From: Providencia sp. | GTDB taxonomy: Bacteria > Pseudomonadota > Gammaproteobacteria > Enterobacterales > Enterobacteriaceae | DNA length: 64,000 nucleotides | Direction: 5' to 3' | Assembly (NCBI RefSeq): GCF_040396775.1 | Contig: NZ_JBEBNT010000019.1 | Coordinates: forward strand, 7,880-71,879 | Shown here: in pieces, positions 13,183 to 15,703 of the stretch | Layout of the letters: each line of letters opens with the position of its first letter | Position numbering within the stretch: the stretch's first letter is position 1 | Position numbers and translations under genes: made by a program | Notes under the pieces: generated by a model | Told to the model about the DNA's origin: nothing | Databases searched by the model: none | What the model saw: the letters and a program-made list of their open reading frames with translations, nothing else

Positions 13183-13893
13183 TTAAGCACAAACAGGATA
13201 ACCAAGATAAATATCACAAGTAGGATACGTCGAGGCAAATGAGCTGATGGTATTATTACCCATAAAGCTGCTATCAGCAGAATCCATCGCGGTGATCTGC
13301 TCAGCTAATCGTGTTGCACGTGAAGAACCAAAGCAATCAGGTAATTGAGGTTCATTCAACGTATCGAGCTCTGCACTCACCATCTCAGACAAACGAATAC
13401 GCTGCGCATCTAACGTTGCGAATTCTCCATTGATCCATTGGTTTTGGATAAATAGCGATATTACCGCATGGCGCACAAAGGGTGAATCTGAAGGGATTAC
13501 TGAAGGGAATGGGGATTCCGTATTCGAAAATGACGCCAAACTCAGCTCTAGCGCATTAATACTGTCCATAACTTTATCAAAGTTATCTGCATCACCAATA
13601 GTATTAATATATTTTTCTATTTCCACGATGTTATTTTTAATAATTGAAAATTTTTCTTTATTATTATTTAAATTCATCTCTTCCTGATATATGAACTTAT
13701 CGGTGGGTTTAATCTCCCGGGTTGTTAACGTATCTAAACTTCTACCTGTATGTTCTCTTAAAATATTAATATTTCTTTGCTGCTCTTTTTCATAAACTGC
13801 AAACTTTGCACTATAATCTTCAAATTTCAACTTAAACGAATTAAACTCGATTTGTGACTTAAATTTATTATTTAAACTCATTATATAATTCAT
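13183..13893 (-). CDS. hypothetical coiled-coil protein P1 ending in C-x8-C-A
   Basis: 236-aa ORF in very AT-rich DNA. The N-terminal half is Asn/Lys/Ile/Glu-rich and the C-terminus is ...YPTCDIYLGYPVCA. The SD-supported start may be the ATG at 13881 (M5). It has its own terminator. No family recognised. Confidence 0.6.
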   Translation of the reverse strand: MNYIMSLNNKFKSQIEFNSFKLKFEDYSAKFAVYEKEQQRNINILREHTGRSLDTLTTREIKPTDKFIYQEEMNLNNNKEKFSIIKNNIVEIEKYINTIGDADNFDKVMDSINALELSLASFSNTESPFPSVIPSDSPFVRHAVISLFIQNQWINGEFATLDAQRIRLSEMVSAELDTLNEPQLPDCFGSSRATRLAEQITAMDSADSSFMGNNTISSFASTYPTCDIYLGYPVCA

Positions 13894-14040
13894 CCTTTAT
13901 TTATATTTTGAAATAGAAAATAAACTCATCTGATTTTCATTAAAAATCAAAATTAAAATAATCTAAAATATGAAAAATGACAAAATCATAGTTTATATAC
14001 TACGTTTAGTTTTATTATTATGATGATTATATAACAACCA

Positions 14041-14056
14041 GCCCCCTAACGGGGGC
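14041..14056 (-). terminator. hairpin downstream of the 2OG oxygenase gene
   Basis: gccccc-taac-gggggc. On the minus strand it is followed by tggttgttatat. Confidence 0.4.
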
Positions 14057-14073
14057 GGCATACAAGGGGAACG

Positions 14074-14658
14074 TTAAAGTATTTTTTCAGTTAAAAACCA
14101 ACCCGCTATACTTTCACGCTTATTTTCTGTGGGTAAAACTTCATGAGGAAAATTTTCTGACATAAAAAAGATCATTCGCCCTGCAACGGGTTCTAACTTA
14201 AACAAATGATTATCTTCATGGTCATAAACAACCAATTCTCCACCATCTTGAGGCTGCCATCGCTCATTCATATATAAAACCGTTGTGATTTTACGACGTC
14301 CAACTCCTCGCGGGTTATCAACATGTTTTTTATAGAATCCACCATTGGGATAGCGGCAAAAATGGGTTTCAAAATCACGTAAACCAAGATAAAGCTGACG
14401 ATTTAATGCTTGCCTGATGTGCTCCATCTTATCCATATAACGCGCAACAGCATCTCCCATCTCGGGTTCTAACCAAATTGTTTGGTCGCCACGAATACTT
14501 TTATTACCCTGCAATGAATCACGATGCCCAATGCGAGCGTCTTGTAATTTATCGGGGATACAATCTTTAATGGTATGAATCTCTGACAGATTCAGAAAAT
14601 CGTCCCACACATACCAACCTTGTGAAGCAAGTGAATCAATAAGTTGATCAATTGACAT
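14074..14658 (-). CDS. 2OG-Fe(II) oxygenase, prolyl 4-hydroxylase (PHD/P4H, SM-20-related) type
   Basis: 194 aa. Has an HxD...H facial triad (HVDNP ... HEVLP) and a distal RESIAGWF. GWYVWDDFL, IRGDQTIWL, LYLGL..FE.H..RYP.GGFYKKH and LYMNE.W.P.DGGEL resemble remembered bacterial PHD homologues such as Pseudomonas PPHD. Confidence 0.8.
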   Translation of the reverse strand: MSIDQLIDSLASQGWYVWDDFLNLSEIHTIKDCIPDKLQDARIGHRDSLQGNKSIRGDQTIWLEPEMGDAVARYMDKMEHIRQALNRQLYLGLRDFETHFCRYPNGGFYKKHVDNPRGVGRRKITTVLYMNERWQPQDGGELVVYDHEDNHLFKLEPVAGRMIFFMSENFPHEVLPTENKRESIAGWFLTEKIL

Positions 14659-14838
14659 GATGAATTTAAGAGTGGTTACTAGGTAAGATTTTATACTTTA
14701 TTAGTGGAAAAATTTAAAATTAAAAACTCAAATCCTAATGATTCAATAACCCTATCAATGCGAATCACTAAAACATTATGATTGCGAGAGTAAAACAAAC
14801 AACTCCTTTTATATCATTAGCATAGAAAAATTGGAGAC

Positions 14839-14869
14839 AAAAAAAGGACTTAAACAAGATTAAGTCCCT
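14839..14869 (-). terminator. rho-independent terminator of the 261-aa ORF
   Basis: 8-bp stem ggacttaa/ttaagtcc (14846-14853 / 14860-14867). On the minus strand it is followed by TTTTTTGTCTCC. Confidence 0.7.
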
Positions 14870-14917
14870 TATCTCATCAGCGAGAAATTAGTTCACTAAT
14901 TGTAAAACTATTTAAAA

Positions 14918-15703
14918 TTAAGCGCACATTGCTGTTCGACCAACACCGCCACAGTCACAGAAAGGAATTGATGCTTTCATAGAATTTATAGGCATAGAAT
15001 TGATTGGGTTCTCTGCTGAAAAATAGCCTTCATTCGTGGGTTCAAAGCCTGACTGCTGTTCGGAAAGCATATCCAATAATGCAGGTTGTACATCTAATTG
15101 TACGGGATCTTTCATTGCCTTAAGCGCATCTAACTCAATATTCAAACGTTCTTCATTTATCTTTTTAACTAAAACGTCAATTTCATAGCGCACTTTGGCG
15201 AGTTCATCATTTTTTTTATTAAAATTAGCAATAGGCGTGAAAATCATCCCTCTCAATCCGCCATGATTAGTGAAGTCTATTTTTTCAAAGTTATTTTTTG
15301 GTTGATTCCAACTTTCATTATTCTTTAAATCTTGTTGAACTTGTTTAATATAAAAATCAATTTCATTTTGACTATAAAATACATTATTTTCTTTCAAATC
15401 AGTAAGGATGGACTCTTGTTCCAACAGAGTATTATGGCTTAGGCTTACTTTATTCACTTGCTCACGCAAGCTATTATTTATTTTATTCTTAACTGCATCC
15501 ATGGTTTGTTGCATTTTATTAATACCATGCCTTCCAGATATTAATAATTTTTCACTCACAGAATTCATATTCTCTATGGCTGCATTGGCTCTATCATTTA
15601 ATTCAGCCAATAACTCTTTACTTCTTTTTATTTTCACTCTAACTAAATCTAATTTTTTATCTAAATTAGCAAATATTTCCATTTCCATATGATAAATCTC
15701 CAT
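14918..15703 (-). CDS. hypothetical coiled-coil protein P2 ending in C-x8-C-A
   Basis: 261-aa ORF in AT-rich DNA with heptad-like Lys/Glu/Asn/Leu-rich segments. The C-terminus is ...IPFCDCGGVGRTAMCA. The GGAG-supported start may be the ATG at 15688 (M6). Architecture parallels P1. No family recognised. Confidence 0.6.
   Translation of the reverse strand: MEIYHMEMEIFANLDKKLDLVRVKIKRSKELLAELNDRANAAIENMNSVSEKLLISGRHGINKMQQTMDAVKNKINNSLREQVNKVSLSHNTLLEQESILTDLKENNVFYSQNEIDFYIKQVQQDLKNNESWNQPKNNFEKIDFTNHGGLRGMIFTPIANFNKKNDELAKVRYEIDVLVKKINEERLNIELDALKAMKDPVQLDVQPALLDMLSEQQSGFEPTNEGYFSAENPINSMPINSMKASIPFCDCGGVGRTAMCA

Follow-up and report, generated by a model that had tools for sequence, protein, structure and literature searches.

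A probable PPHD orthologue in Providencia lies between two variable slots of orphan genes for predicted tail-bearing helical proteins

The closest described relative of the enzyme considered here is PPHD of Pseudomonas putida, the protein of PDB entries 4J25 and, in complex with EF-Tu, 4IW3, which hydroxylates a proline of EF-Tu (PMC7864055, PMC4543633, PMC5701443); the effect of this hydroxylation is unknown (PMC4543633). A more distant relative, animal PHD2 (EGLN1), has a disordered substrate, the oxygen-dependent degradation domain (ODD) of HIF. We analysed a stretch of 64,000 nucleotides of Providencia DNA (hereafter the window), a chromosome segment near P. alcalifaciens as judged from the names of homologues and the ordinary recQ...uvrD...cyaA...wec...rho context, in which a gene for a PPHD-like oxygenase is flanked by two genes that we call P1 and P2. 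An initial annotation had read the three genes as an undescribed system comprising an enzyme and two substrates or partners; that claim is unsupported, and the trio is not shown to form one system. The locus is best described, probably correctly as a whole, as a PPHD orthologue flanked by two variable slots of orphan, tail-bearing helical proteins.

Three minus-strand open reading frames (ORFs) are present with the positions and lengths that the initial annotation had given them, in the gene order uvrD - P2 - oxygenase - P1 - prfH - rtcB:

13183-13893, minus strand: P1, 236 aa, from the ORF list
14074-14658, minus strand: oxygenase gene, 194 aa, from the ORF list
14918-15703, minus strand: P2, 261 aa, from the ORF list

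Orthologue starts and Shine-Dalgarno positions indicate that P1 probably begins at 13881 (MSLNNK), giving 232 aa, and P2 at 15688 (MEMEIF), giving 256 aa. The DNA is, as had been noted, very AT-rich, with a GC content of 0.35 in P1, 0.39 in the oxygenase gene, 0.32 in P2 and 0.24-0.27 between genes, compared with 0.43 for the window.

Comparison of its sequence with those of solved enzymes makes the middle gene a probable PPHD orthologue within the PHD family. Its product matches PF13640 (E 5.5e-24; 85 bits, cut-off 27), which bears out the earlier call of a PHD/P4H-type 2-oxoglutarate (2OG)-Fe(II) oxygenase, and its best solved relative by a wide margin is PPHD (PDB 4IW3/4J25, E 9.4e-42 over residues 6-189); similarity is weaker to human PHD2, with which it has the catalytic fold in common (E ~1e-16), to collagen-type P4H (E 1e-10 to 1e-11) and to the PKHD/YbiX type (E 1e-3). 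The window oxygenase and PPHD of Pseudomonas putida/aeruginosa are of similar size and align over their full length, and in the HMMER alignment the catalytic set is intact, with H112-x-D114 and H172 as the iron ligands and R181 for the 2OG C5 carboxylate; both also lack the C-terminal helix of animal PHDs (PMC7864055). The Providencia oxygenase is old, vertically kept and housekeeping-like: identity is 73-99% across Providencia, 59-64% with Ignatzschineria and ~47-53% with Vibrio, Grimontia and Photobacterium, and the ratio of nonsynonymous to synonymous substitution rates (dN/dS) is 0.02-0.08. By homology to PPHD, this enzyme would most likely hydroxylate a loop proline of EF-Tu, the one in switch I, in a reaction dependent on O2 and 2-oxoglutarate.

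The oxygenase is not dependent on P1 or P2, because it is conserved beside unrelated neighbours in other genera and, inside Providencia, in loci that lack the P genes. We inspected ~17 Providencia loci, and the oxygenase was conserved in every oxygenase-bearing locus examined. Both slots are filled in the window and its close relatives, in P. rettgeri, in PROV202 and in JUb39; P. rustigianii and P. stuartii have P2 only, P1 being missing; and in P. burhodogranariea and BIGb0506 neither slot is filled and the oxygenase gene stands alone. Outside the genus, the oxygenase gene of Vibrio, Ignatzschineria and one further relative has unrelated neighbours and no P1/P2-like gene, and its neighbours in Grimontia are unrelated too; homologues in Pseudomonas likewise lack such neighbours, whereas the Providencia gene sits in an AT-rich variable interval. 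The trio order is thus kept in several Providencia and lost in others and beyond the genus, so that co-conservation of the three genes across genomes failed, with loci that hold the oxygenase alone, that lack P1 or that lack the oxygenase.

The slots themselves are unstable. In P. stuartii NCTC11800 the P2-type gene is frameshifted into pieces of 102 aa and 315 aa, SKLX146130 retains only a 113-aa fragment, and the P2 slot of PAZ2 holds a different protein of 243 aa without a Cys ending. We also observed that P1 in one P. rettgeri-type genome is reduced to 84 aa by an in-frame internal deletion (L001:9812-10066), which keeps the first ~20 and last ~60 residues, the latter essentially the tail described below. 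In a Providencia metagenome-assembled genome (MAG), GCA_054684975.1 (L030:5001-6400), a P2-type core is fused to a P1-like ending (NCKIYISGDLVTSC) and followed by an 89-aa P1 remnant, and this locus may be a deletion or recombination product that joined both slots; there is no oxygenase gene at the locus, which, this being a MAG, could lie elsewhere in the genome.

P1, the oxygenase gene and P2 appear to be separate transcription units, because each has its own hairpin and the AT-rich gaps among them measure 180-260 bp; the separate termination proposed for the three genes therefore stands:

13144-13171, minus strand: terminator-like hairpin 3' of P1, strong, a 12-pair stem with 9 G-C pairs followed by a T-run
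14041-14056, minus strand: terminator-like hairpin 3' of the oxygenase gene, GCCCCCGTTAGGGGGC, followed by a T-rich tail
14843-14870, minus strand: terminator-like hairpin 3' of P2, an 11-pair stem followed by TTTTTG

The region contains 6 terminator-like sites compared with 2.1 expected. A promoter scan gave a site count not above that of shuffled sequence, and an Rfam scan of the locus gave nothing near the gathering score; a sub-threshold match to the rimP leader at 13970-14092 on the minus strand (28.8 bits versus a gathering score of 47, E 0.07), which shares positions with the terminator hairpin of the oxygenase gene and with DNA upstream of P1, is probably due to chance. Between uvrD and P2 lies a palindromic G+C-rich hairpin (15838-15861) that has a T-run on the plus strand only; on the minus strand, from which uvrD and P2 are both read, A-rich sequence comes next. 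Transcription could run on from uvrD into P2, since this hairpin lacks a minus-strand T-run.

Sequence searches place P1 and P2 in Providencia only and in no described family, in agreement with the first reading of them as proteins of no recognised family. Neither matches Pfam or NCBIfam, none of P1, P2 and the P. stuartii homologue matches a PADLOC family, and PHROGs gave weak matches only, at E of at least 6e-4, to families of unknown function. Searching PDB sequences with a P2 profile returned coiled-coil noise only (E at least 0.076), and tblastn of plasmids and phages returned no P1/P2 copies. A word-indexed search found 3 close homologues for P1 and 16 for P2; among 1.84 billion representative proteins, an exhaustive HMMER profile search picked out 14, all of them members of the P2-type family, and the named ones among them are all Providencia entries labelled 'hypothetical protein'.

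P1 and P2 are nevertheless real genes, and fast-evolving ones, because their frames of 230-260 codons are kept in DNA of 32-35% GC among orthologues down to 34% identity, and because their dN/dS, though high, is below 1 (0.24-0.71 for P1 and 0.32-0.49 for P2, compared with 0.00-0.13 for the oxygenase gene, prfH, rtcB and uvrD, the last at 0.01). Between P. alcalifaciens and P. rettgeri the orthologues are 34% identical for P1, 53% for P2 and 78% for the oxygenase; the syntenic P. rettgeri P1 orthologue (E 2e-42) ends in NCEIILGDLYCY.

AlphaFold2 (AF2) models suggest that P2, and less confidently P1, consists of long helices followed by a disordered C-terminal tail:

14921-15100, minus strand: P2 C-terminal tail, residues 202-261, predicted disordered
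13186-13353, minus strand: P1 C-terminal tail, ~residues 181-236, predicted disordered

The P2 model has a predicted local distance difference test score (pLDDT) of 76 and a predicted template modelling score of 0.66, and residues 11-200 are mostly above 90 with only 15 sequences as input; its helices are predicted at residues 3-56, 61-105, 112-131 and 150-198, and the tail is below 50 throughout. In the P1 model (pLDDT 57) long helices lead into a Pro-rich loop and one more helix, after which comes a disordered tail with values below 50. A fold search was run on the P2 model only, the P1 model being too poor, and Foldseek matched the P2 model to generic BAR-like or four-helix bundles in the PDB and BFVD at E of at least 0.02. 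An invariant Arg in an (S/T)xR motif marks the end of helix 1 in both families, and to this extent the (S/T)GR(H/S) motif first reported for P1 and P2 is real; the LDA(L/Q) segment reported with it is not conserved.

The tail is the constrained part of P2. Its elements are the short helix LLDMLSEQQSGF, a linker rich in Ser and acidic residues, and the terminal stretch C249-D-C251-GGVGRTAM-C260-A261, where 15 sequences agree without exception at G252, G255, R256, T257 and C260. Conserved tail elements of the P2 family as a whole are L-(S/I)-E-Q-x-S-G-F, a linker rich in E-(G/S)-S, and C-x-G-(R/K)-T-(A/G)-(M/F)-C, after which 0-5 residues remain; the Cys spacing is 6, 8 or 10. These elements persist in P. 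vermicola, P. rustigianii, P. heimbachae and a 432-aa P. stuartii form despite cores that can barely be aligned. The codons of the motif vary synonymously between species, which means that the constraint acts on the protein.

The tail of P1 is built on a comparable plan, with LAEQITAMDS, a Ser/Asn linker and C-(D/E)-I-(Y/I)-L-G-x3-C-x, ending in the window as C226-DIYLGYPV-C235-A236; its family keeps (L/M)-x-E-Q-I-x-x-(M/L)-D-S and (D/E)-I-(Y/I)-L-G. The P1 cysteines are held less strictly: PROV202 has lost the distal one (ending HYA), JUb39 has lost both and has no tail Cys (ending GGGGIYLGIPHNY), and the short P1 form of P. heimbachae has C-x10-C. The identical C-x8-C-A endings described for the two proteins are therefore as written in the window itself, but their register is not conserved. 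Cysteines are nonetheless clustered far from randomly at the end of P2, with all three in the last 13 residues (probability ~(13/261)^3 = 1e-4), and two of the three in P1 fall in the last 11. P1 and P2 have an overall plan in common, in which long helices precede a disordered tail, rich in Ser, Asn and acidic residues, that ends in a Cys-bracketed loop.

This common plan had been taken as paralogy, which is not borne out for the cores and is plausible for the tails. At the level of sequence the cores are not detectably homologous: BLASTP of P1 against P2 gives E 0.83, hhalign of the full-length families gives probabilities of 0.1% and 0.6%, and jackhmmer on the collected set resolves three separate groups, P1-long, P1-short and P2. 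The similarity between the tails is weak, though repeatable. Hhalign brings their LxEQ segments into register at E 7.8e-4, with a probability of only 25%, and in a column-shuffle control 1/300 shuffles reached the observed score. A hidden Markov model (HMM) of the P1 tail matched six different P2 tails at E 1.6e-5 to 1.2e-3 per comparison and the PAZ2 P2-position protein at E 4e-6, and the P2-tail HMM matched the P. vermicola P1-position protein at E 2.4e-5. In addition, one protein, P0146, carries a P2-type core (RNIDFDNIQGLRGRIF) with the P1-like ending NCKIYISGDLVTSC and could be a recombinant. From these alignments a tail module common to P1 and P2 is plausible, and the two families may have it by common descent.

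Two further comparisons concern proteins in these slots. The P2 slot of P. stuartii holds a double-length protein of 432 aa that ends in FCMGKTAFCGHGTC (L009:3437-4735, CP027398; L014:2436-3735, NCTC11800); hhalign identifies the C-terminal half as P2-like (probability 91.5%), and the N-terminal half has no match. We considered and rejected a P1-P2 fusion here, as the BLASTP hint of the N-terminal half to P1 (E 0.004) was not reproduced and the profile probability was 4%. Likewise, the match of the P. heimbachae P1-position protein to P2 helix 4 (E 0.003-0.02) is too weak and coiled-coil-like to rely on.

We propose that, between uvrD and prfH-rtcB, a hypervariable AT-rich slot on either side of the oxygenase gene holds genus-specific and probably independently transcribed orphan genes. 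Their products, clearly so for P2 and probably for P1, would have ~200 residues of long helices and a disordered tail of ~55-60 residues, in which a short amphipathic helix of the pattern L-x-E-Q-(I)-x-x-hydrophobic leads through an acidic/Ser-rich linker to a small terminal loop that contains Gly and is usually bracketed by two Cys. Conservation patterns suggest that such proteins may be adaptors, in which the conserved tail would serve as a handle, either docking to a conserved partner in the cell or forming a disulfide, metal or redox loop, and diversifying pressure would act on the variable helical surface. An adaptor model is the most likely one because the tail stays the same at the protein level on a helical body that changes fast and is frequently exchanged.

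A similar layout is known from chemoreceptors, whose four-helix bundle continues into a flexible linker, with CheR/CheB recruited by a conserved pentapeptide at the end. By analogy, P2 and P1 would have a long bundle of helices, then a disordered linker of tens of residues, and at the C-terminus a short conserved motif; they have no sequence or detectable fold relation to chemoreceptors, and no transmembrane or signalling domain.

If this sober reading holds, the locus adds one PPHD orthologue and documents a small, hypervariable, genus-restricted orphan family, and mainly aids the annotation of Providencia genomes. An orphan family of modest interest is left, with a sharp C-terminal motif, beside two translation-linked functions, the PPHD orthologue and PrfH-RtcB. 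Being short and strongly constrained on a body that changes fast, the motif of the P-family tail offers a clean handle for finding partners by pull-down.

Several points weigh against this account. The adaptor model is drawn from conservation patterns in sequence, the confidence of the P1 model is low, the EF-Tu activity of the oxygenase is suggested by an identity to PPHD of only ~45%, and the comparison of loci is limited to the ~17 named above. Moreover, a conserved disordered tail is the type of region that PHD enzymes bind in HIF, and the adjacent oxygenase is the nearest conserved protein able to serve as its partner. All P1/P2-type genes that we found lie at this one locus and on the same strand as the oxygenase gene, and from such exclusivity a functional link is indistinguishable from simple inheritance of position.

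P1 and P2 could instead be secreted effectors directed at a host or a competitor, their helical domain engaged in an arms race and their C-terminal tail serving as an export or targeting signal; we regard this as unlikely. Some secretion substrates do pair a variable body with a conserved C-terminal module, and the fast evolution of P1 and P2, the very different alleles within one species, an AT-rich setting that resembles acquired DNA and the lack of a signal peptide all agree with such a role. There are, however, no copies on plasmids or phages and no adjacent secretion, chaperone or toxin/immunity gene, and the P2 N-terminus is modelled as a confident helix from ~residue 11, unlike the disordered signal of type III substrates.

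One version of the effector explanation would have the terminal Cys lipidated in the host cell. CaaX or Cys-rich C-terminal lipidation motifs occur in bacterial effectors, the C-terminus of Salmonella SifA being an example, and P1 and P2 resemble these in concentrating Cys at the extreme C-terminus of a protein with no signal peptide. They differ in that the last Cys can stand anywhere from 0 to 5 residues before the end, and their ending is not a CaaX box: we rejected prenylation for endings that read CA, CM, CG, C, CV, CS, CY, CT, CGITH, CGVTH, CGATH and CGHGTC, none of which has Cys at -4 with two aliphatic residues and one further residue after it. Type III secretion systems are carried by Providencia species (PMC11477908), which favours export, but the secreted proteins identified for P. 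alcalifaciens in a secretion study are SipA, SipC and SipD only.

The enzyme-and-substrates proposal of the initial annotation, in which the oxygenase would hydroxylate or dock onto the disordered tails of P1 and P2 as an O2 switch like that of PHD acting on the HIF ODD, is likewise unlikely. It draws on the confinement of P-family genes to this locus and to the strand of the oxygenase gene, on tails that are both conserved and predicted to be disordered, on N-x-P loop motifs that are kept (P135 and P157 in P2, P178 in P1) and on F-(E/K)-P in about half of P2 tails. The proline that had been singled out as a target, next to the first tail Cys, is not conserved in either family: the residues at this position read YPTC, YPAC, TINC, YGGC or GGGG in P1 and IPFCDC, SFICDC, IKGC, SYHC, VQRC or HRVC in P2, and no Pro is invariant anywhere in the tails. 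The oxygenase is also a close homologue of PPHD, whose substrate is the folded EF-Tu; it is kept without P1 or P2 in other genera and in two Providencia lineages, one locus with a P2-type gene lacks it, and the three genes have separate terminators. Were the tail partner to be the adjoining oxygenase after all, it would be the first PHD in bacteria to have disordered client proteins dedicated to it; a second substrate class for a bacterial PHD would be informative, given how poorly the biology of these enzymes is understood, the effect of EF-Tu hydroxylation included (PMC4543633).

A bolder form of the same idea, a Providencia-specific class of helical bundles whose Cys-loop tail is bound or modified by the oxygenase, with oxygen or thiol redox switching stability or activity, would make the locus a bacterial counterpart of PHD-HIF with fast-evolving clients, and we think it very unlikely. 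Its likeness to the PHD2 system lies in the disorder that is predicted for the P1 and P2 tails and known for the HIF ODD; unlike that substrate, the tails have no LxxLAP-like motif and no invariant Pro. Just as poor are the prospects of P1 and P2 being decaying or non-functional lineage-specific ORFs in a silenced AT-rich gap, with the common Cys ending a coincidence: frequent loss, frameshift, internal deletion and replacement, the raised dN/dS, a Cys pair that is dispensable in some P1 orthologues and cores that are not homologous would fit, but dN/dS stays below 1, the long frames are maintained at low GC down to 34% identity, the invariant tail motif shows synonymous codon variation and the P2 model is confident with only 15 sequences. 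A toxin/immunity reading was rejected as its defining features are absent, and a ribosomally synthesized and post-translationally modified peptide (RiPP) precursor with a Cys-rich C-terminal core as there is no adjacent maturation enzyme (cyclodehydratase, radical SAM, multinuclear non-haem iron-dependent oxidase (MNIO) or similar) or exporter.

The neighbours of the trio region are uvrD, prfH, rtcB and genes for an amidohydrolase and a permease, and the variable interval is bounded by conserved genes on both sides:

15877-18051, minus strand: uvrD, the conserved upstream boundary, from the ORF, synteny and Pfam annotation in related loci
11394-13138, plus strand: the rtcB-prfH pair, the conserved downstream boundary, convergent with P1 (Pfam RtcB E 7e-74, RF-1 E 6e-23)

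Further AT-rich stretches of the window lie at 6001-7000 and 46001-49000 (GC 0.33-0.36); one AT-rich stretch corresponds to the end of an EamA-family transporter gene and the gap that follows it, another to the surroundings of rho and the DNA that separates it from a DEAD-box helicase gene. No extra copies of the P1 and P2 families or of their tails occur elsewhere in the window, these stretches included.

The stop and start codons of rtcB and prfH overlap, and the pair shares the strong hairpin at 13144-13171 with the convergent P1. PrfH-RtcB is a module for rRNA repair and ribosome rescue that has been shown to act against colicin E3 (PMC9304027, PMC9223846). It is degraded in some Providencia, with prfH truncated in the P. 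stuartii NCTC11800 locus (L014) and only an 81-aa RtcB remnant retained in another (L004). With an EF-Tu-type hydroxylase adjoining the PrfH-RtcB module, the interval has a translation-related theme.

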